64,000 bases of DNA from an uncultured virus (IMG/VR IMGVR_UViG_3300048930_000155) (lineage: Duplodnaviria; Heunggongvirae; Uroviricota; Caudoviricetes): positions 1-64,000 of the IMG/VR virus record IMGVR_UViG_3300048930_000155. One strand, 5' to 3'. Positions 3,918 through 34,411 of this stretch are shown here, one piece after another; within the stretch, counting starts at the first letter, position 1; each line of letters starts with the position of its first letter. The notes beneath the pieces were generated by a model. The model saw nothing but the letters and a program-made list of their open reading frames with translations, was not told where the DNA came from and made no database searches. The translations under genes and the position numbers were made by a program.

Positions 3918-4135
3918 ATATGCGCGCTCTCTGATTTAATTTCTATAACCCTTAGGGATAGGCGTACTAAGTTATAAGGTCGCCTAAGTTTAGCAGATAG
4001 GTAGTCAGTTAGTACGTCCTCCGCGGCTAGGGCCGCCATAAGTCTCGGGTCTTCGAAATAATCGTCGCTCTTCAGGGATACCGGCACACTATATAACTTA
4101 CCTGCATATTCTATACCCACTAAATAATCTAACAT
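3911..4135 (-). CDS. Hypothetical protein
   Basis: ORF with G-rich SD, in operon. Confidence 0.7.
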   Translation of the reverse strand: MLDYLVGIEYAGKLYSVPVSLKSDDYFEDPRLMAALAAEDVLTDYLSAKLRRPYNLVRLSLRVIEIKSESAHIC

Positions 4136-4801: not shown

Positions 4802-5407
4802 TTAAACACCCTCTCCAGCAGCGTCGGCTATGCTGGCAACAAAGCTGTCTGTCTTTAAAAGCTTATCTAACTGCGTTACTAACTCGAATATAGAGCTAAA
4901 TTCAATGTCTATACTCTTTAAATCGTCGTATTTACGGTGATATGGTGCATCCTTGACGCTAACCGTTAGCCGTATATTAAGTTCATTAGGTCCTGTCAAC
5001 ATAAGATCGGCCCCTATTAATGTCGTAGACTCTGAATCCTCTGCTCTATAATTATCAAAATCGTCTAACTGATCATCCGTCAATTCAGCATCTGCTGGTA
5101 TTTTACGCGCCTCCTTAAAGGCCTCTAAGTTGTATTTATAAAACTCATCTAGGGTCTTGTGTGCGTTTTCGAAGATACCTGACAGAGCGTACTCTGCGTG
5201 TCTGTTGTCTAGATAAGATATAGCCTCTAATCCGCCCTTGTTGTGACTATAAGGCATGAACCCGTCTCTGGATCTGCACTCTAATCGGTCTATTCTGTCG
5301 CGGCTAAAGCCTAGACCCTCTATTAAAAAGTCTCTCAACATTTGCTCTAAGCTATCGGCCTCGCTCGTACTCAACTCAGGCATATCCTCTATTTTAAATG
5401 CGTGCAT
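4802..5407 (-). CDS. Hypothetical acidic protein
   Basis: 201-aa ORF with AAGGA SD. Confidence 0.8.
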   Translation of the reverse strand: MHAFKIEDMPELSTSEADSLEQMLRDFLIEGLGFSRDRIDRLECRSRDGFMPYSHNKGGLEAISYLDNRHAEYALSGIFENAHKTLDEFYKYNLEAFKEARKIPADAELTDDQLDDFDNYRAEDSESTTLIGADLMLTGPNELNIRLTVSVKDAPYHRKYDDLKSIDIEFSSIFELVTQLDKLLKTDSFVASIADAAGEGV

Positions 5408-5953
5408 ACTGGCTTATCCTTTCTTTTGCTTGTTATGTTAGCCACTATATAGCACTATGCTGCTATAGTGTATTAAGTTTATATTAAATCTGCGTTAGGT
5501 CTATTTAAAGCTTTCTGCTTAACTATCAGTTACTTAAGTCTAGGCTAAACTCGCCACTTAAGCTCGTTTTGAATTTAGGGCCTCGACTGCGTAACCTTAA
5601 GCCTAAATTAAGTCTATTCAGCTCTAACTAAAATCAGCTACTTAGCAGAACGGGCCACTAATACGTCTATATAGAATAGATAATCATTATCCATAACATG
5701 TACACATATAAATAGACTGTGTGTAAAGGCTATAGTGAAGACTTAATCATTAGTATAGGGTGTTCTATAGGACATATAGCAAAGTACCGACTATAGGGCG
5801 TATAGAGCGTCTAATAGAGTCTTAAGTCTAGGTGAGTACAGGTGTACTATTCGTTAATCTATTCAAAGCTTTGGATTGAGAGTGAGCGATGAGGTGGAGG
5901 AGTGATGGTTATAGTCACACTCACACCCTCTTCTCCCCCATAAACTCAACTAC

Positions 5954-6142
5954 TTAGCCCTGTCTCAATTCCCAAAGCCTATCCCACAATGCCCGCCTAT
6001 AAGCACTGGCCACTTCTATCCACTCCCCTAGAGCCGCCCGCTCTATCCCCTCAGCCCCTCTATAGGCTATAGTCATCGCATTCAGCTCTAATTGAAGCTC
6101 TACCAGCTCCCCCTGTACTGTACTCATGTCTAAACTATCCAT
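5954..6142 (-). CDS. Hypothetical protein
   Basis: AAGGGGG SD upstream of ATG. Confidence 0.65.
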   Translation of the reverse strand: MDSLDMSTVQGELVELQLELNAMTIAYRGAEGIERAALGEWIEVASAYRRALWDRLWELRQG

Positions 6143-6370
6143 AAATCCCCCTTAGTATTGTCTTTCTAGCATTTAGGCCGTGTCTTACGGCTTAAGTATC
6201 AGTTTTAAATCAGTGATATATCGGTGTAAAAATAACACACTATAGACCTATCATTGCCTATAGGATATACTCTAAACTGGGGTAGAGTGTAGCCCGCCCT
6301 TAATAGCCCGCCTGCCCCCTCTACGCGATATCAACTAGTTACGCAATCACTATACGCGACGCCCGACTAG

Positions 6371-6583
6371 TTACTCTTTGGCGTAGTACTCGCCGTCAGG
6401 TCCTTGCTCTAGTTCTCCGCCTTGTGCCAAAGCATCGGCGTAGTCAGCCGCCCCTACCCTAAAGGCTATGGGGTCCACTACTTTGAGCGCATCCCCTTGC
6501 AAGTACTCATACCCGCCTATTTTGACCGGCGGCAGTTCATTTAAGAAACCCCTGTATAATTCGAATTCGTTAACTCTAGTCAT
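6371..6583 (-). CDS. Small phage early protein
   Basis: ALKVVDPIAFRVGAADY motif of a kind seen in small phage proteins; strong SD. Confidence 0.7.
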   Translation of the reverse strand: MTRVNEFELYRGFLNELPPVKIGGYEYLQGDALKVVDPIAFRVGAADYADALAQGGELEQGPDGEYYAKE

Positions 6584-6668
6584 TTTAAAACCCCCTATCC
6601 TTAATAGTAATATAGTACTGATTCAGGTCAGGCCTGAAACTCCATGATTAGTCTCATACGTTGCCCCC

Positions 6669-6770
6669 TTACTGTACCGCCACAAAGGCGGCTAATTGAA
6701 TGATTGCGTGTCCGACTGCCCCAAAGGCTAAACTCAGTAGCGCTATTGCAATGATTCCGTTGAATGTCAT
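6669..6770 (-). CDS. Small hydrophobic peptide (33 aa; not in the ORF track)
   Basis: AAGGAG-N8-ATG; MTFNGIIAIALLSLAFGAVGHAIIQLAAFVAVQ*. Confidence 0.55.
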   Translation of the reverse strand: MTFNGIIAIALLSLAFGAVGHAIIQLAAFVAVQ

Positions 6771-6839
6771 TTTATTTACTCCTTATAATCTTATAATGCC
6801 CGATTTTTTAGGCCGGGCTAATTAATTTTACGTTAAGAT

Positions 6840-7022
6840 TTAGGCGGCTAACCTCAATACTCCTAGCATGTCGTTAGCTTTGGCCTGCGCTATTTTGCGA
6901 AGTCTGATTAAGTCTTGAACATTGTCTACTAGTCCTGACCGCATGATCTCTACCTCAGTCCCTCTCCACTTAATAAAGAATACAATGTGTTTATGATGGT
7001 ACTTGAACTTGATTGGTTGCAT
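6840..7022 (-). CDS. Hypothetical protein, first gene of the leftward operon
   Basis: AGGAAAGGG SD, downstream of the sigma-54 promoter. Confidence 0.65.
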   Translation of the reverse strand: MQPIKFKYHHKHIVFFIKWRGTEVEIMRSGLVDNVQDLIRLRKIAQAKANDMLGVLRLAA

Positions 7023-7070
7023 ATGTTTATTTCCCTTTCCTATTCTGTTTAGGTCTTATACTTATATACA

Positions 7071-7086
7071 TGCAAGGCGTGTGCCA
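7071..7086 (-). promoter_or_regulatory. Sigma-54 (-24/-12) promoter
   Basis: Minus strand reads TGGCAC-ACGCC-TTGCA, an exact match to TGGCAC-N5-TTGCW, about 50 nt before the first gene of the operon. Confidence 0.75.
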
Positions 7087-7128
7087 AGACTAACTGTTGA
7101 TAATCATTGGATTGTGTAGATCATATGA

Positions 7129-7224
7129 TGTAGAAGTTCTTTACACTTTTATTAAGATTAGGTTAGCCCCGCCTGATAGTCCCATGACTTCAACTACTTA
7201 GCTTAGGTGTAGAAGTTATAGACA
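7129..7224. promoter_or_regulatory. Two TGT-N11-ACA boxes, candidate enhancer-binding-protein sites
   Basis: TGTAGAAGTTCTTTACA (7129-7145) and TGTAGAAGTTATAGACA (7208-7224), upstream of the sigma-54 promoter. Confidence 0.5.
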
Positions 7225-7855
7225 GGTGTCATTAGTTTGGTCGATGGGTCGGTGCATTATTTTGTACATACAATAGACGGCGTGGCGGGCATGGTGTAGA
7301 CTATAGACATGTTAGACTTGAGCAGGAGTATAGACTATAGGCATAGCCTAGGCATAGCTAAGTCTAGGCAAGGCTTGACATAGGGAATAGCCCCCCCCCT
7401 GTGGCCAACGGCACCGTCGTACGGGCCTATTGCCAGACACACACCCCGACCCCTTTTTTAAATCCGGCCCCGAAGTTTAGACCGCCCCCAAACTGAGTAA
7501 CTGCACAAGCGCCCTGCCCCCTCCAAAATCCAGACGGCTATAAGTTTGAGTAACTGCTAGTCGCGACCGTATCATACCTCTAAAGGTATAAACTAGACCT
7601 AAAGCTCTAAAAGCATACCCGCTAGGGTACACTGGACTAGAAGTCTAGGCTAGGTTATAATGGAGCTTAGAGTGACTAAGCTAGTCGAGGCTATATCCAA
7701 AGGTAGCGTAGTTTAGGCTTAGGGCGTATAACGCGCTAGGAAGGCCTAGATTAAACGATTAGCTTAAAGGTAGTACGTAGGTGGCCTAGACTAGGCTACG
7801 CTTAATAGCGGGGCGTATAGGCCGTTTAAATGGGTAATAGCATAAGGAGACGATA

Positions 7856-8143
7856 ATGCAGACTAAAGGTAAAATTATTAACTTGTACGTGCATAGGAAG
7901 ACAGGGGAACTGTATACTCAAGTGAGTACGAGTAACTATAGAATATTGGATTCAAGAGGTAACCCTATTAAAACCCAGCATTTAGAGTTGATAGATTCTT
8001 GGATAGAATTAGATAATGAGGGACTTTTAAGCTCAGGGTTTTGGTATGACCTAGGCCTGTTCACTGCTTTGATAGGGACTATCGTAGGTACCTGTTATTT
8101 AATCGTAAAGGCGTTATTTAATATGCCCCTCCCGCTGACTTAA
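7856..8143 (+). CDS. Hypothetical protein with C-terminal transmembrane segment
   Basis: TAAGGAG SD; hydrophobic C-terminus. Confidence 0.7.
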   Translation: MQTKGKIINLYVHRKTGELYTQVSTSNYRILDSRGNPIKTQHLELIDSWIELDNEGLLSSGFWYDLGLFTALIGTIVGTCYLIVKALFNMPLPLT

Positions 8144-8425
8144 TTTATCAAGCGAGCACTGCATCACTTAAACGGCATGCGCTGACCGCTCCTGCCGTGC
8201 CGCGCCTACCCCCCCCCCCTAGTTATCAGCCTAGTTATGCGCTATTATTAAACTCTAATGGACACTATTCTAGGCCTAGGCATTTACTTTAGCTTCGCTA
8301 TATTCTTTTTAGTTATTATGCCTCAGGCTATGGTGTTTGTATTTCGAGTACTTAACTACGTAGCCTCGATATTAGGCGATAAATAGTACCTTAGGGCTAG
8401 GCCGTAGCTCACAACAAATCTTTAT

Positions 8426-8614
8426 ATGAAGCCTGACGACACTAAAAAACTCTATCAAGATACTAATGGAGATCTTTGGGTAGTGGAGTCTACAGACTAC
8501 TTGTATGCACCTACCGGCATAGTTTACATATTTGAATCAGCTCAAGGTAAGATCTACTCTACCTTCTCACCAGAGACCTTAGGGTACGTTTTAGTCGACG
8601 ACTTTACTGAGTAA
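8426..8614 (+). CDS. Hypothetical protein
   Basis: ORF directly after an AACAAAT motif. Confidence 0.6.
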   Translation: MKPDDTKKLYQDTNGDLWVVESTDYLYAPTGIVYIFESAQGKIYSTFSPETLGYVLVDDFTE

Positions 8615-8623
8615 GGGCACGCT

Positions 8624-8839
8624 TTAAAACTTGACCGTTACCCTGAACTCTCGCTTTGAGTCAGATTTTGAAGCTAATACAAATAAAATCTTATAGTTAT
8701 TATCAACTACGTCAATAAGCTCGTAACCATAGTCGATCTCATTTTGCACGATTTCTTGGAACTTAGATTTAAGTTCGGAGTCGCTACGATCTTGCGTGTC
8801 TATGTACAAGAATTCATAAGTATTAGCTCGTTTTGTCAT
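8624..8839 (-). CDS. Hypothetical protein
   Basis: AAGGA SD. Confidence 0.6.
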   Translation of the reverse strand: MTKRANTYEFLYIDTQDRSDSELKSKFQEIVQNEIDYGYELIDVVDNNYKILFVLASKSDSKREFRVTVKF

Positions 8840-9020
8840 GATTAGTTCCTTTTAATCTAGCTTATAGCAAATTATATTTTGATCTAGCTGCCTAAAGCAC
8901 TTGTAGTTTATCTCTGCAGGATCTATAAGTAGCTGTATTTCTTGTTTAGGAGTAAAGAATAGTGACGCGCATCCTTGCAAGAGGCTTAGCATTAGGCTCA
9001 GCATTACAACGCGCATGGAT

Positions 9021-9200
9021 CTATTCAACGCTTTCTCTAATTAAATCACATCGCTGATCGACTAAAGAACGATCAAGACACATTTCCTCTACGGCCCGAC
9101 GCTGAATGTTACCTAATAGGTGTGCGCCCAGTCCTACAACTGCCGCCATTAGTAATAAAATCATGAAGATAGCCATAATAGCATCCTTAAGTACTTGCAT
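9021..9200 (-). CDS. Small membrane protein
   Basis: Hydrophobic helix; start MQVLK is 7 nt after TTTACT-17-TATAAT. Confidence 0.6.
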   Translation of the reverse strand: MQVLKDAIMAIFMILLLMAAVVGLGAHLLGNIQRRAVEEMCLDRSLVDQRCDLIRESVE

Positions 9201-9273
9201 AGACTCCATTATAGCAGCAAGCATCGCTCAAGTAAAGTAGATATTTTGATCATAATGTGCTAATAATAAGAAT

Positions 9274-9951
9274 ATGAGTCAATTTATTGCAATTATTATG
9301 GTAATAATGGTCTGGGCGATGCCATCTGAAGCCAAGAACAAATATAAGCAGACAATGAAACGCCAAAAACTAAAGTCAGCTCAGGAGTTGCAGGATAAGG
9401 GGCCTATCTCAGAAGAAGACGCGCTGTTATACCCGCTATCTGGCGTAGAGTCGTCTTATGGAACTGATTTAGATCATAAGACTATGAAGACGGGAATACA
9501 TGCCGGTACGGCGGCGCAAGGCCCGTTGGGAATGATGCCACTAACTTTTAAGGACGTCGCTAATAGAGTTCGATTACGCAAAGAAGAGCTAGGCCTAGCC
9601 CCCGATTTTGAAGGTGACCCAGAAATAGAACAATGGGCCAGGCATCCTAATATTGATGAAGTAGCGTTCGCTATGCGCGAATTCCCTGATATGACTCAAA
9701 GAGCTGCCAGATACTTAGAGCGACACCTAGAACATAGATTTCCAGGAGACGAGAATCTTGCTAAAAGAGCGTTTATGTGGAATCAAGGCCACGCAATGAA
9801 GGATTCTAAAATTCCCAGTGATGCTACAATAGAAAAGCACGATTATACTAAGAAGTTTCGTCGCGAAAGTGCTAGAAGATTCAAGAAATTAGAGGAAGCT
9901 GCTAGAAAAGCCAAGGCGTCAGACCCTAGTAGTTCAGATAGTATTCCTTAG
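9274..9951 (+). CDS. Lysozyme-like / lytic transglycosylase-fold protein
   Basis: Motifs VESS (catalytic Glu), AQGPLGMMPLT, AFMWNQG. Confidence 0.6.
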   Translation: MSQFIAIIMVIMVWAMPSEAKNKYKQTMKRQKLKSAQELQDKGPISEEDALLYPLSGVESSYGTDLDHKTMKTGIHAGTAAQGPLGMMPLTFKDVANRVRLRKEELGLAPDFEGDPEIEQWARHPNIDEVAFAMREFPDMTQRAARYLERHLEHRFPGDENLAKRAFMWNQGHAMKDSKIPSDATIEKHDYTKKFRRESARRFKKLEEAARKAKASDPSSSDSIP

Positions 9952-27617: not shown

Positions 27618-30600
27618 ATGGCAGCAAATACAGTTGCAACACTTAATGGATTTTTTAAAGAACTTTATGCGAATCAAGTAGAAAACTTAGTTCCTGATAA
27701 CGTAGTCCTCATGAAAGAAGTTGACTTCGTTCCCATGGACAAACAAACCGGTAATCTCTAAAAGTTGAAGATGGAGATTGCGGGTAGAAAAAGCCCCCGC
27801 TATATGGTAGAATCCTTTTAGGAACAATACCTTGAAGAATTATAAAGTATATCAAATCCAAGATATAAATGACAAGACGGTCTACGTAGGGCTGACGGGT
27901 CAGCCATTATCTAGACGATTTGCTCAGCACGTTACTAAACGTAAGTGGAATAGGGCTCATTACAAAATAGTCCTTATTCAGGAGCATTTGACGCTGGATC
28001 AGGCAGTTATTTTAGAAGAGATGCTTATATTACAATATAATACTAGAGTAGACGGGTTAAACGTTAGCCCAAAGTCGATTAACGGCTATTCAAATTTACA
28101 CTCCCCTGAAATGAAGGCTAGATGGTCCAAAGACCGCAAAGGCAAGAAAGTTTCAGAAGAGCACGCAGCTAAGAATAGAATTGCAAGACTCGGACATAAA
28201 AATAGTAAAGAGCATCAGGATAAAATAATTAGACCTAAGCCGGTAATGTGTTTAGAAACTGGTAAAGTTTATAAGTCGGCTAGAGAAGCCGCTAGAGATT
28301 TAAATTTACACTATAGCAAAATTAGCTTAGTTTGTAATGGACTAAGAATTAGTACCGGCGGATATCACTTTAAATTCGTATAAAAATCGGGATGTATCGG
28401 TGAAGGCCTTATAAAAGGTTAATACCGAGGGGAATTGGACCTAACGAATCCAAAACTTCGTAACGCATACTCAGTGAACCTCGAAAGAGAATATAATCTG
28501 GGCAAGAGCTTCCGACACTTAAATGTGAAAATGTATGCTGACCTTATAGGTAACTATAAGATGTTAGAGATAAAAAACTCTAATGATAACAATAAGATCA
28601 TCAACCAGTAATTTTGGGTTAATTTGGCCCAAGTAAAATCTTCTCTGATTGACTTGAACATCCTGAGAAACAGGGCAACAAGGGGCAAGCGAAAGCAGCC
28701 TGAGAGACTAAGTGAGAAGACCCGAGAGGGATGCGATAGTCCGAACTACCGACATAAATAAAACGGTAGACCTTAGCAGAAATGTCTAAGGACTCTAGAA
28801 ATAGAGGTTAACAGAATGCACGAACACGGGTTAAAGCTTTAAGATAGCCCGGTAGACTTAGTAATAAGTTTACGAGAATTGAGGAAAAAACCTGGAAGAC
28901 TAAAGTCTAATAAGGTATAATAAAAGTATGAAACGTTTTGGATCAATATATAAAATTACCAGAATAAGCGATGGAAAAGCTTATGTAGGTAAGACTACGA
29001 GAGATTCGGTAATGGATCGATTTAATGATCATTACTGGAAAACTTCGTCTAAAATGTATATTGATATGGCTCTTCGTAAGTATGGAAGAGGCGCATTTAA
29101 GGTTGAAGAACTTTTTATAGCGTTTAGCGAGCAATCATTGAACGAGGCAGAATACTTGTTAGTGAAAGCGTATAATACTCTGAGCCCAGATGGTTTTAAT
29201 CTAAAGGACGGCGGCCACGGCGGAACAAAGCACACGCCACTAGCTCGAAAAAGAATATCGGACGGAATAAAAAGGTCTGCTAAAATTTTCAAGCCCGGAT
29301 TTAATCGTCCACACACTGAACAAACAAAGCAGCAAATATCAAGAAAATTCAGTCAAGAGAAGATAGTAGCGATATGCCTAAAAACCGGAGCTATTAAGAT
29401 TTATGACATGTTAATGGATGTCAAAAATGACGGATTTCACAAGAGCAATGTTGTTCAGATATGTAAGAAACGAAGCGCACGCCAAATGCACAAGGCGCAT
29501 ACTTTTATGTACTATTCAGACTATGTTAATCAGAACGGAAGTGTAGATATTAAAATGTCTATACACGTGCAACGCATAGGTATTGATCCTAGCTTTATTA
29601 GCTAGACTATAACATACCCACGAGTCCTCAACCCCTCTCGGGAGGGTGAAAAGATATGCTGACCTTATAGGAAACTATAAGAACTAAGGGATAAAAAGCC
29701 TTTAGGGTAACACATGTATCTTACGGAGGCTCCGCTGGAACAGCGTTTAACTTGAACGACGCTATTCCCGGAACAGTTCGCGACGCTACAATCCAAGGAT
29801 ATGAGTTCCTTCTGCGATCTCAAATTGCTTTGTCTGTAGCTACACGTTCTGCTTCTAGCAAAGCAGCTTTCGAGCGCGGCACGAAATTCATCGTAGCTAA
29901 CATGGTTCGATCTTTCGCTAAGCGATTAGAAATCGTCATGTTCTACGGTCAAAAAGAACTCGCTAAAGCTGACGACGCTATGACCGGTTCAGTACTTGAG
30001 ATTTCTCAAGCTGACTGGGCTCCTGGTATCTGGGTTGGCGCTGAGAACGCAGTAATCGAAATCTACTCTGCTGATCTTTTGACCCTTCGCGGCGAAAGAA
30101 CAATCACTGGAGTTAATTTGGAAGACCGCACCCTCACGCTGAGCTCTAACTTGGCCACAGTTGTAGCTACCGACAGGATCTTCTTCAAAGGTTCTATGGG
30201 TAACGAATTCAAAGGTCTCCACGCTATCATGACTGAGACTTCTTCTTTGTTCGGCATTAACCCTTCTCAGTACAGCTTGTTCAAAGCTACTGAATATGAT
30301 GCTGGCGGAGCTGACCTCTCTTTCGCTAAAATTCAACAAGCTATCGCTCGTGGCGTTGAAAAAGGCCTTGACGAAGACGTTCTTTGCTTGGTTAACCCCA
30401 AGACTTGGGCTAAGCTCATGACAGACCAAGCTGCTCTCCGTAAATTCGACTCTTCTTACAGTGTTGAAAAATCAGAGAACGGCGCTCAGTCTATCAAGTT
30501 CTACGCTCAGAACGGTGGAGTTGAAATCAGACCTTCTACTTACGTAAAAGAGTCTCTCGCTTTCATCTTGCCCGTAGCTGAATTGATGCGCGTTGGATCT

Positions 30601-30768
30601 ACCGACATTACCTTCAAGCAACCTCTGGACCAGACCAACGGTGGAGATGCGTTCTTCTTAGCTATACCGAACGTCGCGGGCTTCGAAATCAGAGCCTATT
30701 CGGATCAAGCATTGTTTGTCGCTTGCCCCGGTAAACTGATTCTCATTCATAACATCATCAATTCTTAA
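27618..30768 (+). CDS. Major capsid protein, spliced: join(27618..27759,28597..28619,28819..28831,29717..30768), 409 aa
   Basis: AAGGA SD; the exons join in frame to ...KQTGNL-YHQPVILG-HEHG-LSYGGSAG...; lies after the scaffold gene; highly-expressed codon style; followed by a terminator. Confidence 0.88.
27760..28596 (+). mobile_element. Group I intron 1 in the capsid gene (837 nt), carries a homing endonuclease gene
   Basis: P1 exon AATCTCT / IGS GGAGATT with U-G at the splice site; P10 TTGAAGAT/ATCATCAA; P3 TCGGGA/TTCCGA; P7 GCATA/TATGC; terminal G. Confidence 0.88.
27832..28383 (+). CDS. Intron-encoded GIY-YIG homing endonuclease with NUMOD-type tail
   Basis: VYQI...VYVGLT...RF..H, E, GLN; C-terminal ETGKVYKSAREAARDL. 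Confidence 0.88.
   Translation: MKNYKVYQIQDINDKTVYVGLTGQPLSRRFAQHVTKRKWNRAHYKIVLIQEHLTLDQAVILEEMLILQYNTRVDGLNVSPKSINGYSNLHSPEMKARWSKDRKGKKVSEEHAAKNRIARLGHKNSKEHQDKIIRPKPVMCLETGKVYKSAREAARDLNLHYSKISLVCNGLRISTGGYHFKFV
28620..28818 (+). mobile_element. Group I intron 2 in the capsid gene (199 nt, no ORF)
   Basis: P1 TTGGGT/GCCCAA; P3 TCTTCTC/GAGAAGA; canonical P7 GAGACTA...ATAGTCC; GCGAAAGC hairpin; terminal G. Confidence 0.85.
28832..29716 (+). mobile_element. Group I intron 3 in the capsid gene (885 nt), carries a homing endonuclease gene
   Basis: P1 CGGGT/GCCCG; perfect P10 TAAGATA/TATCTTA; P3 TTGAGGA/TCCTCAA; P7 GCATA/TATGC; terminal G. Confidence 0.88.
28928..29605 (+). CDS. Intron-encoded GIY-YIG homing endonuclease
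   Basis: SIYKIT...GKAYVGKT...RF..H...ALRKYG...E...PDGFNLKDGG. Confidence 0.9.
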   Translation: MKRFGSIYKITRISDGKAYVGKTTRDSVMDRFNDHYWKTSSKMYIDMALRKYGRGAFKVEELFIAFSEQSLNEAEYLLVKAYNTLSPDGFNLKDGGHGGTKHTPLARKRISDGIKRSAKIFKPGFNRPHTEQTKQQISRKFSQEKIVAICLKTGAIKIYDMLMDVKNDGFHKSNVVQICKKRSARQMHKAHTFMYYSDYVNQNGSVDIKMSIHVQRIGIDPSFIS

Positions 30769-30828: not shown

Positions 30829-30934
30829 ATTGCCTAAAATAACTAAGAGTAGTTTGTCAGAATAAGCGCACTAGTATTATAGAATCAAACTTATTTAGTT
30901 GACTATGTGTACTAAGTGTGATATGTTTATATAC

Positions 30935-32530
30935 ATGACTTTAGATAATTATGATAAACTTCCTTACGGCATAGTTTATGTTCATATTAATAAGCATAAC
31001 GGCAAGGCATATGTAGGACAAACTAGACAAGACCCGGCTAGAAGGTTCAAAAACGAAAGTAACGGCATTAGCAGCTATGCATCTTGTAAAGCTTTTTACA
31101 GGGCTCTGAAGAAGTATTCCTGGGACGGATTTGAAACGAGTATACTAGCTTCAGCTAAAACCCAAATCGATCTAAATTGGCTAGAGGAGTACTTTATTAA
31201 CTACTACTCTGCGCTTCTTCCTAATGGGTATAACTCTGTTCTTCAGACCCCAGAAAGAGTCATATTCACTCAAGAAGTAAGGGATAAGATATCTGCAGCT
31301 AATAAGAGACCTACCGGTAAGCCAGCTTGGAACGCGTTTCGCATAGAAATGGTAGAAGGGAGGCCTCATAAAAAGTGTGGCCTGTGTAAAAGACTTCTAC
31401 CAACATCCAATTTCTCTGAAATACGAAAACGAAGGGGCGTAGTGCTAGAGCAGCCTAAATTAAATCCAAGATGCAGAGAATGCAATAATGCATATAGCTC
31501 TAAGTATGTAAAATATACCAGACTTACTCAAGAGGAGAAAAGAACTAGACTTGATGCTAAGAATGCTCGTATATCTGCAACCATATCTGCAAAATTCAAA
31601 AAAGATCCCGAATACAAGAAAAAATTGAGGGACGCTATTAAAAAGTCTCTTGTAGCAGTTCCAGTAGATTCTGATAAAACTACTTTAGTGTTCGACGCTG
31701 GCATAGAAGCCACTGCTGCTGGGTATCAAAATACGCCTATTAAAAAGTCTATCGATTCAGGTAAACCCTATAAGGGATACGTATGGAAAAGAATGCCGGA
31801 CCTTGAGCAAGACATGGCATCGGCTCTGGGCGTTAGTGGAATAAATGTCTTAAAGTCTGTGGCCATAAGTGACTACAAACTGGACCTAAAAGACCCCCAG
31901 TTACGCGGTAAGATGGTCATATGGAAGCACGAATGGCTAAATCGACGCAAGCAAGTCCTAAACTTCCTAAAACCTAAACTAGGCCTCAGTACTACTATTG
32001 GAGCGCGTAAGTGTGAGTTTAGGCCAGTAGACTGGACCACAGCTAGAGATTTCTGCGAAGCAAATCACATACAAGGGGCGCCGCAACACTCTAAGCTATC
32101 TTTAGGAGCTTTTTACAATAACGAACTAGTCGGTTTAGCCACATTCTCTAGTCATCATAGAAATTCAAACGAGATCGTGCTGTCTCGACTGTGTTTTAAG
32201 GATGACATATCGGTGGCCGGGGCACTATCTAAATTCTCTAAAATAGCCACTAAGCACTTTAACACAGCTATCTATACATGGGTCCACAAAACACTGTCTG
32301 ACGGCCAATCTTACGTTAAAGCCGGCTGGGAAGTGGTAAACGTATTAGCCCCAGACTATTTTTATGTGTCCAGCCAGGATGGTTCAGTAGTCTCCAAGCA
32401 ATCTCGTCAAAAGCGCCTAGTGAACACCCCGGCCGGAATGACCGAACTGGAGCACGCCACAAAAGATGGTTTTAAGCGCGTCTATGACTGCGGAAAGATT
32501 AAATTAGTTTACAGCGGCAACAAATATTAG
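30935..32530 (+). CDS. Free-standing GIY-YIG endonuclease fused to a Zn-ribbon and a Hef-like C-terminal domain
   Basis: GIVY...AYVGQT; CGLC/CREC; IGARKC...NHIQG...LSRLC...PDYFY...YDCG; start moved to MTLDNY after TTGACT-17-TATGTT. Confidence 0.78.
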   Translation: MTLDNYDKLPYGIVYVHINKHNGKAYVGQTRQDPARRFKNESNGISSYASCKAFYRALKKYSWDGFETSILASAKTQIDLNWLEEYFINYYSALLPNGYNSVLQTPERVIFTQEVRDKISAANKRPTGKPAWNAFRIEMVEGRPHKKCGLCKRLLPTSNFSEIRKRRGVVLEQPKLNPRCRECNNAYSSKYVKYTRLTQEEKRTRLDAKNARISATISAKFKKDPEYKKKLRDAIKKSLVAVPVDSDKTTLVFDAGIEATAAGYQNTPIKKSIDSGKPYKGYVWKRMPDLEQDMASALGVSGINVLKSVAISDYKLDLKDPQLRGKMVIWKHEWLNRRKQVLNFLKPKLGLSTTIGARKCEFRPVDWTTARDFCEANHIQGAPQHSKLSLGAFYNNELVGLATFSSHHRNSNEIVLSRLCFKDDISVAGALSKFSKIATKHFNTAIYTWVHKTLSDGQSYVKAGWEVVNVLAPDYFYVSSQDGSVVSKQSRQKRLVNTPAGMTELEHATKDGFKRVYDCGKIKLVYSGNKY

Positions 32531-33748: not shown

Positions 33749-34411
33749 ATGCAAATATATCAAATACTAAATACAGTTAATAATAAGTGTTATATAGGTA
33801 AGACTTATAAGTGCTTTAAGTATAGATACGGAAAATGCTGGGCTACGGCCACAACAAACGTAGCGCTAAAGCGTGCAGCTGCGAAGTATGGTATAGACAA
33901 TTTTAAAGTCGTAATCTTATTTAATATGTACTCAAATGACCATAGCTTACTACAGGAACTAGAAAAATATTACATAGCAAAGTATAGAAGTAATTTACAA
34001 GAATTTGGGTACAATATGACCTCGGGCGGGGACGGTAGTGTTCAATTTAATGAAGAAAGCAGAAAAAAATTATCGCAAAGTAAAAAAGGTAAAAAGCCTG
34101 CCCACCTGCACACTCCGGCCATGGTGGCTAAAAGAATTGCGGCATGTCGAGCAGCTTGTTTAGGTAAGAAAATGCCAGAAGAACAGGTCAAAAAAATGTC
34201 CGAAAAAAAGAAATTTGTCTTTACGTTTGAGAAAAATGGAAACAAAACTTCTTTTCTCGGACTAAGCAGCGCAGCAAGAGCATATGGTATAAGTTTAAGA
34301 ACACTAGGGCGCTGTATGAATGATAAGTCCGCCTCAAATAACAAAAAAGATAGAGTAGTATTTATCTCAAAACATAAACAACAATTTCCGGAAAATGAAG
34401 GAAACACATAA
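33749..34411 (+). CDS. Free-standing GIY-YIG homing endonuclease
   Basis: QIYQILN...CYIGKT, KYG, GYNMTSGG; AT-rich; basic NUMOD3-like repeats. Confidence 0.88.
   Translation: MQIYQILNTVNNKCYIGKTYKCFKYRYGKCWATATTNVALKRAAAKYGIDNFKVVILFNMYSNDHSLLQELEKYYIAKYRSNLQEFGYNMTSGGDGSVQFNEESRKKLSQSKKGKKPAHLHTPAMVAKRIAACRAACLGKKMPEEQVKKMSEKKKFVFTFEKNGNKTSFLGLSSAARAYGISLRTLGRCMNDKSASNNKKDRVVFISKHKQQFPENEGNT

Follow-up and report, generated by a model that had tools for sequence, protein, structure and literature searches.

Several phage genes interrupted by group I introns foreshadow the locus treated here, the gene for the major capsid protein (MCP) of an uncultured tailed virus of the Caudoviricetes (IMG/VR record IMGVR_UViG_3300048930_000155), which we analyzed in a stretch of 64,000 nucleotides (nt) spanning positions 1 to 64,000 of that record (hereafter the window). 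The tail-tube gene orf142 of the Staphylococcus phage Twort contains three group I introns and a 23-nt exon that is skipped (Landthaler and Shub 1999, via PMC10136302 and PMC11878797), and the case for natural exon skipping by group I introns rests on reverse-transcription PCR (RT-PCR) evidence only (PMC10136302). Splicing of an intron in the capsid gene of the mycobacteriophage LittleE was likewise established by RT-PCR, with a capsid intron of Tuc2009 cited alongside it (PMC3706429). The MCP genes of the crAss-like Delta and Zeta phages show group I interruptions, with one gene lying in five fragments and up to 14 introns in a genome (PMC7886860). Introns of ~206 nt are described from the Jug phages (PMC12880540), and PMC11835236 also belongs to this prior literature. 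There are, hence, close precedents for triple group I introns together with a micro-exon in a capsid gene, and an earlier note on this DNA, made from the letters alone, overstated the rarity of triple splicing in such a gene: capsid introns are in print, Twort orf142 has three introns and nine of the 32 split relatives that we collected have three or four. What we describe below is a natural series of capsid genes in which such introns appear to be confined to the 5′ part and their endonucleases to be zoned along it.

A capsid gene in four exons

The exon and intron coordinates proposed in the earlier note were recovered in full: the gene carries three inserts around micro-exons of 23 and 13 nt, and joining its exons gives an open frame of 409 codons (Table 1). 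A spliced alignment, which used a protein profile of the relatives and the rule that exons end in U and introns in G, with no term for the P1 helix, returned the identical six boundaries. As sliding intron 1 by +1, or intron 3 by +1 or +2, leaves the mRNA unchanged, the register at these two introns is set by the U/G rule and P1. All seven intron-retaining forms stop at codon 47, 55 or 62, one in-frame stop being placed right at the 5′ splice site of intron 1. Loss of either micro-exon singly shifts the frame and loss of both leaves an in-frame product of 397 amino acids (aa). The insertion sites lie 13 and 23 bases apart in the mRNA.

Table 1. Coordinates of the split capsid gene, its predicted RNA helices and the associated open reading frames (ORFs), in window positions.
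Feature	Position	Strand	Remarks
Exon 1	27618..27759	+	142 nt; ATG at 27618; codons 1-47 and base 1 of Tyr48; profile match positions 4-50
Intron 1	27760..28596	+	837 nt, group I; codon 48 phase 1; GIY-YIG ORF inside
Intron 1 P1	27751-27759 with 27773-27781	+	
Intron 1 P10	27765-27772 with 28597-28604	+	
Intron 1 GIY-YIG ORF	27832..28383	+	183 aa, TTG start; between the P1/P2 region and P3
Intron 1 P3	28387-28392 with 28510-28515	+	
Intron 1 P7	28463/28465-28469 with 28534-28539	+	
Exon 2	28597..28619	+	23 nt; remainder of codon 48 through Gly55
Intron 2	28620..28818	+	199 nt, group I; after codon 55; no ORF
Intron 2 P1 G	28627	+	
Intron 2 P3	28639-28645 with 28714-28720	+	
Intron 2 P7	28704/28706-28710 with 28737-28742	+	
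Exon 3	28819..28831	+	13 nt; codons 56-59 and base 1 of codon 60
Intron 3	28832..29716	+	885 nt, group I; codon 60 phase 1; GIY-YIG ORF inside
Intron 3 P1 G	28847	+	
Intron 3 P3	28879-28885 with 29625-29631	+	placed by eye
Intron 3 GIY-YIG ORF	28928..29605	+	225 aa; within the P4-P6 domain, end overlaps P7
Intron 3 P7	29572/29574-29578 with 29655-29660	+	identical to intron 1 P7
Exon 4	29717..30768	+	1052 nt; remainder of codon 60 to stop; contains the 338-aa ORF of the ORF track
Free-standing GIY-YIG-type ORF	30899..32530	+	directly downstream of the capsid gene

A search with the exon 4 protein matched 1,396 proteins. The comparison with intron-free homologues, which had been named as a check, bears out the junctions: in 94 full-length proteins among the 120 matches listed, residues 45-62 agree and run in the same order, with G45 kept in 93 of these 94, P51 in 93, V52 in 92, E57 in 91 and G59 in all of them; eight of the homologue rows differ in length across residues 44-64. 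From this anatomy and frame, we consider it almost certain that three spliced group I introns split the gene. Among the sequencing runs listed, none of RNA contained this gene. One run with a 0.05 share yielded short pieces only, mostly of related introns from other organisms and with no capsid junction, and is uninformative on expression.

The identity of the product as an HK97-fold MCP, as had been proposed, is supported by PHROGs, a structure model and the gene neighborhood. The PHROGs assignment is to the major head protein, and a Pfam scan of the capsid protein found no match. The model of a homologue (P0003, 79% identical across exon 4) has a pLDDT of 83.8, and its top Foldseek matches are HK97-fold proteins, namely capsids of phages and encapsulins, with E-values from 3e-10. 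Portal and terminase genes upstream complete a head module. The genome record is complete, with 81,739 bases and direct terminal repeats, and its capsid matches comprise these exons only; with a single capsid gene, a full-length capsid protein requires the removal of all three introns. The three insertion sites map to the strand spanning model residues 52-60, which we take to be the E-loop hairpin, and directly behind it.

RNA anatomy of the three introns

In all three introns a P1 helix with a U-G pair at the 5′ splice site is present, as had been seen before, and the P1 scores of sites 1-3 are equalled by 0.07%, 0.7% and 1.5%, respectively, of the 16,882 U positions in the window. Each intron ends in the expected G (28596, 28818 and 29716), a check that is not fully independent, as the G rule helped to set the register. 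The P10 pairings reported earlier for introns 1 (7 of 8 pairs) and 3 (7 of 7) are clear, and that of intron 2 is weak (3 of 7). Intron 1 has two additional helices between P7 and P3, and intron 2 has a short, 3-nt J7/3 and no P2. Besides having an identical P7, introns 1 and 3 are alike at 86.5% along a 52-nt stretch; P7.1 covaries in the sets of both, and P4/P5 are present in the predicted fold of intron 3. Presumably, introns 1 and 3 are IA2-like and intron 2 is IB-like.

The Rfam group I model, a check that the earlier note had recommended, found no match, either across the whole window at the gathering score or in 27700-29800 at E up to 10. Given the silence of Rfam, we tested the structures on the introns of relatives. 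In intron 2 and ten related introns without an ORF, a 42-pair structure is paired in 95.8% of cells, with 27 of the 42 pairs changed on both sides and P3, P4, P5, P6 and P7 paired throughout (100%); 0 of 500 shuffles and no slid control came close. The 3′ core of intron 3, compared with 13 other introns, four of which are poorly aligned, is paired in 89.7% of cells (94.7% in P7), with a two-sided swap of two P7 pairs in roughly half of the rows. For the intron 1 set (n = 7), the paired fractions are 100% for P7, 91% for P7.1 and 93% for P9.

Some of these results argue against a group I assignment. The missing Rfam match does so, read as a library score rather than as a defining trait of group I introns; PMC11878797 describes that model as incomplete for phage introns. 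In the intron 1 set, only 57% of cells pair in P3 and 49% in P4, where the alignment has slipped out of register; one of its rows is unrelated ORF sequence. Within the window sequence itself P4 does pair. Further, the structures were drawn from the window’s own introns, which favors them over the slid controls. Nevertheless, with P1, the terminal G, a P3-P7 core and a P4-P6 domain all found, we uphold the earlier assignment of three group I introns, for which self-splicing is predicted. No further members of these intron families were found elsewhere in the genome.

Introns crowd the first fifth of related capsid genes

Related loci were gathered through six protein scans and one intron-motif scan, five of these scans contributing only their best 80 matches each. 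Of the 337 loci, 323 had a capsid gene, and these fell into 184 clusters at 95% identity: 145 are intact, 32 are split (the window included, and two from the motif scan), one has an intron end at a contig edge, five are cut by the contig and one has an in-frame stop. The 32 split genes hold 61 introns at 20 sites, all within codons 13-82, i.e., the first fifth of the gene, with one intron in 13 genes, two in ten, three in eight and four in one; eight genes in unrelated contigs share the site at codon 55. Spliced alignment placed 50 of the introns (one gene by hand), and 11 were placed by eye at codons 13, 17 and 26, two of these with only the 3′ end visible. Between codons 45 and 82, 11 of the 19 internal exons are 11-24 nt long. 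A P1 score of at least 4.4 is seen in 47 of the 50 aligned introns versus 7% of background sites; this score entered the final placement, and of 37 introns placed earlier without P1 only one then changed. Of the 50, 45 have an in-frame stop no more than four codons from the 5′ splice site, a known trait of such introns (PMC3984707).

Depending on the scan, 17-32% of the relatives have a split capsid gene. Genes with a split in their middle would be lost if matches were ranked over the full protein; in two scans, the ranking was therefore done on parts of it. The scan by residues 290-412 gave 62 clusters, 60 of them complete; all 60 are open across 83-290, and 20 of the 62 have 5′ introns. That by residues 75-200 gave 66 clusters, all open across 200-400, with 5′ introns in 18. 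The crowded region is well conserved: by nucleotide identity, the stretch of 26 codons that starts at codon 45 is number 2 of 384, and the mean conservation of the intron sites is 0.67 versus 0.60 gene-wide. Codons 110-135 and 150-175 are equally or more conserved and hold none of the 61 introns; hence, conservation alone does not account for the 5′ limit. A distant capsid gene of the same PHROG (L003:600-3370, 24% identity) has several introns, including one of the intron 3 type near codon 300.

The survey also turned up some oddities. An intron of the intron 3 type lies in a capsid gene of another PHROG (L008). Related introns at L084:2811-3094 and around 2540 of L200 have an apparent terminal A instead of G, and a codon-13 intron (L186, ~3985-4000) seems to end about six bases past P7, without a P9 region. 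At L100:1227-1229, an in-frame TAA stands in place of the conserved Gln50 codon, in a capsid gene that is otherwise whole; it may be a sequencing error.

Predicted homing endonucleases and proposed hitchhiking of introns

The introns are patchily distributed. On a FastTree tree of the intron-free part of the protein, intron presence takes 28 changes as against 30.7 when shuffled, which is near random; sites 13, 49 and 59 show no clustering on the capsid tree, and capsid genes that are 97% alike differ in their intron set. Both intron ORFs of the window match PF01541, the GIY-YIG catalytic domain, above the cut-off, with cleavage activity predicted. Across the relatives, one GIY-YIG lineage occupies codons 47-51, HNH endonucleases codons 51-55 and a second GIY-YIG lineage codons 59-82, with LAGLIDADG endonucleases at codons 13, 26, 45 and 48. 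The lineage of the intron 1 endonuclease recurs at codons 47, 48, 49 and 51 in three ribozyme types, with identities to the window’s enzyme of 52-62% at codons 48-49, 35-38% at codon 47 and 32% at codon 51. Identity to the intron 3 endonuclease is 56% at the same site, 25-43% at codons 59-60 and 28-37% at codons 70-82. For the window’s enzymes, the likeness decreases as the sites lie further apart. The locus L070 even combines the site and endonuclease lineage of intron 1 with a different ribozyme. On sequence grounds, the endonuclease lineages appear to follow the site and not the ribozyme, which agrees with the model in print of a nuclease and a ribozyme converging on a common target (PMC3984707). 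A homing origin of the introns is, in our judgment, highly probable.

Introns also pile up in the same genes: 19 genes have at least two introns versus 8.4 expected, and nine have at least three versus 0.9 expected. ORF-less introns account for none of the 13 in single-intron genes as against 17 of 46 in multi-intron genes (p = 0.012). Co-conversion of flanking DNA during homing is established for T4 td (PMC2988022). From the pile-up, and from ORF-less introns occurring only beside ORF-bearing ones, we read such introns as hitchhikers in the co-conversion tract, and we lean towards this as the reason for the dense arrays.

Certain points speak against hitchhiking. The Fisher count treats related genes (L093 and L237) as independent and omits two introns of undetermined content, and one gene (L262) does have a solitary ORF-less intron, though as a deletion variant of L264. 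The likeness of the carriers’ flanks is inconsistent: 3 of 20 windows lie at or below 2%, and 8 of 20 are below most permutations. Shared habitat or heavy co-infection could also cause the pile-up.

Taking these together, the explanation that we consider probable overall is as follows. The capsid pre-mRNA would contain three independent group I ribozymes, each folding separately, cutting at the U-G pair of its own P1, binding its terminal G in P7 and joining the exons, such that the full-length capsid protein would be made only after all three have left. The 5′ part of the gene would be a shared target zone of several homing endonucleases, whence the array. An endonuclease lineage would stay with its DNA target and move among ribozymes within a few bases. 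During homing of an endonuclease-bearing intron into an empty allele, neighbors only 11-60 bases away would be copied with it in the repair tract, so that ORF-less introns such as intron 2 would ride along. This proposal builds on what was directly observed, namely the frame, homology and fold of the protein, the covariation of the RNA, the patchy distribution of the introns, the site-tied endonuclease lineages and the co-occurrence of introns.

Three further observations touch on intron movement. At 28620-28626 and 28819-28824, the guide of intron 2 would pair better with a Gln codon than with the window’s His codon 56, and Gln occurs in 20 of the 94 homologues among the matches listed; this preference hints at arrival from another allele. 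At L070:2570-4028, a single intron carries two nuclease genes, GIY-YIG and LAGLIDADG. L262:6093-6300 and L264:5233-6298 belong to the same cluster and have 100% identical flanks, with L262 lacking the codon-59 intron and also 21 of the 24 bases of the preceding micro-exon (seven codons lost in frame); this could be a natural deletion at the cut site or a misassembly.

Splicing order and exon skipping

The earlier note had suggested that each micro-exon, by serving the P10 of one intron and the P1 of the next, might impose an order of splicing. The case for this is weak, as the two sets of bases are separate in both micro-exons (P10 bases 1-8 and P1 bases 17-23 in exon 2; 1-4 and 9-13 in exon 3), and base-pairing hence forces no order. 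Given the in-frame stops, ribosomes would reach exon 2 only after intron 1 is gone. In one relative (L004, minus strand), the P10 and P1 bases overlap in an 11-nt exon, the shortest found, which would force a splicing order there.

Skipping of exons, also raised before, does have a route at the level of predicted pairing. Exons 2 and 3 end alike, such that the last bases of exon 2 can also be bound by the intron 3 guide, forming six pairs at -6.5 versus -8.5 kcal/mol, or -3.6 versus -6.4 kcal/mol in the partly spliced context. Exon 3 would, by this model, be skipped if intron 2 left first, which matches the stepwise route described with engineered intron pairs (PMC10136302). Moreover, shifted by one base, the intron 1 guide pairs with five bases of exon 4. 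Together with the P7 common to introns 1 and 3, this could allow a joint ribozyme in the manner of Twort to produce the 397-aa form, which is probably defective. Beside the joining of exon 2 or of exon 1 to exon 4, a third predicted error is that intron 2, with its weak P10, would be retained.

Alternative explanations

The 5′ limit might instead be set by selection on cost, whereby introns land anywhere and only early ones are tolerated in a highly translated gene, since the product of unspliced RNA would then be no longer than 82 residues, costing little and being unable to form a folded piece harmful to shell assembly. All 20 sites falling in codons 13-82 is what this would predict, as is the open later gene in both part-ranked scans despite 20 and 18 clusters with 5′ introns; only 28% of equally conserved codons lie in codons 9-82, and the sites end ahead of a long helix at model residues 113-141. 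However, the distant gene with an intron near codon 300 runs counter to it, the 20 sites do not count as independent (taking about six endonuclease lineages gives a chance figure of ~5e-4) and a self-feeding cluster requires no such selection. We regard it as a serious possibility, if a somewhat doubtful one as the main cause, and it can act jointly with homing and hitchhiking. That introns simply sit in the best-conserved DNA of the gene agrees with the rank of the codon-45 stretch, with the higher conservation of the sites and with the generality of that rule (PMC2814812), but the conserved and intron-free codons 110-135 and 150-175 make it improbable as the sole explanation.

The pile-up of introns likewise bears on an immunity race, in which each intron would be kept as a shield that breaks the target of a neighboring endonuclease. 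The spacings of 13 and 23 bases fall within the 38-bp site of I-TevI and its cut distance of 23-25 nt (PMC2988022), and PhiPA3 offers a known case of an intron nuclease that interferes (discussed in PMC11878797). Shields should, however, often stand alone, and solitary ORF-less introns are lacking among the 13 single-intron genes. Accordingly, the earlier suggestion that the introns mutually block each other’s endonucleases gains no support as the main force, with co-occurrence above chance, and we consider such a race unlikely; blocking of a single enzyme is possible. Regulated alternative splicing, with skipping that makes a second capsid protein or times its synthesis, draws on the in-frame double skip, the likeness of introns 1 and 3 and the pairing of the intron 1 guide with exon 4. 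Yet the 12 residues lost include near-invariant positions in a core strand, close relatives differ in their intron sets, 145 clusters are intron-free and micro-exon lengths follow no frame rule, which together leave it very improbable. Lastly, the lack of an Rfam match might point to a broken gene or an assembly artefact; with frame and length restored exactly, RNA cores that covary, a single copy in a complete genome and the same sites in unrelated contigs (eight genes at codon 55), this is scarcely credible.

Extending the homing and hitchhiking explanation, one might conceive of the first 82 codons as a modular intron cassette, with at least six endonuclease lineages of three families arranged in zones, ribozymes swapped within a zone, ORF-less introns present as passengers only, whole arrays travelling as blocks from phage to phage and selection against long abortive fragments emptying the remaining four fifths of the gene. 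This is tentative and, on present evidence, rather unlikely to hold in all its parts. If true, introns in phage structural genes would obey a rule of position, and the order of splicing would have to be steered to avoid skipping exons of 13-23 nt.

Nuclease genes and genome context

The ribosome-binding site of the intron 1 ORF lies within a predicted hairpin (~27807-27831), which overlaps a weak promoter-like site (27785-27813, 9 of 12). Extended -10 boxes precede 7 of 34 nuclease ORFs as against 1 of 16 ORF-less introns, a weak signal. Besides the free-standing ORF next to the capsid gene, a second free-standing GIY-YIG gene is found in the late region (33749-34411), and about ten relatives also have a free-standing GIY-YIG gene at most 200 bases downstream of the capsid gene. 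A free-standing upstream LAGLIDADG gene was considered as a driver of the cluster and rejected, as those ORFs sit inside introns at codons 13 and 26.

The one named relative found is a phage record with 28% identity and Silvanigrella aquatica as the listed host, too distant for a host assignment. No tRNA genes were found. About 3.9 kb of the window (5407-9274) is devoid of any ORF of 100 aa and of tRNA or Rfam matches.

Comparison with known systems

In the literature listings searched, which covered few subscription journals, we found no paper on a 5′-confined intron hotspot, phage micro-exons or nuclease zoning in a capsid gene; further capsid introns may be listed in Table S1 of PMC11878797, on split phage genes, and in Fig. 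S12 of PMC7886860. Relative to that literature, the strict 5′ confinement and the predicted zoning of endonucleases would be new. A natural series with zero to four introns, 20 sites and several nuclease lineages in one gene bears on why group I introns gather at certain places and on how ribozyme and endonuclease become one mobile unit. The array, with its three predicted routes, also lends itself to a compact test of how natural group I introns skip exons. On the practical side, gene callers truncate such capsid proteins and Rfam misses the introns.

Like Twort orf142, the capsid gene encodes a structural protein, is interrupted by three group I introns and has an exon of 23 nt flanked by two of these; in both cases, similar introns, presumably IA2-type here, would be able to act as one ribozyme and skip. 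Unlike in Twort, it is the major capsid gene that is split, there are two consecutive micro-exons (23 and 13 nt), the similar introns form the outer pair, two introns carry GIY-YIG genes and both splicing and skipping are predictions from sequence. With LittleE and Tuc2009, each described with one intron and no micro-exon, it shares a group I-type intron with a nuclease gene in the major capsid gene and, with LittleE, the exon U and intron G at the splice sites. The crAss-like MCP introns, in contrast, were found via endonuclease domains, with no exon- or site-level analysis in the text at hand, and unlike in those intron-rich genomes, the intron families here occur in the capsid gene only. 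The polA, terL and rNDPL genes of the Bastillevirinae (PMC11878797) are similar in having two to three introns per gene and a small internal exon, with skipping measured there, but they are enzyme genes, and the word capsid is absent from that paper. T4 td and its I-TevI (PMC2988022, PMC3984707) provide the parallel of a GIY-YIG gene in a group I intron with its ribosome-binding site in a hairpin; in contrast to td, homing is here surmised from 20 sites and several nuclease lineages in one gene. As in the collaborative homing described in the same papers, endonuclease and ribozyme appear to be separable partners that meet at one target.

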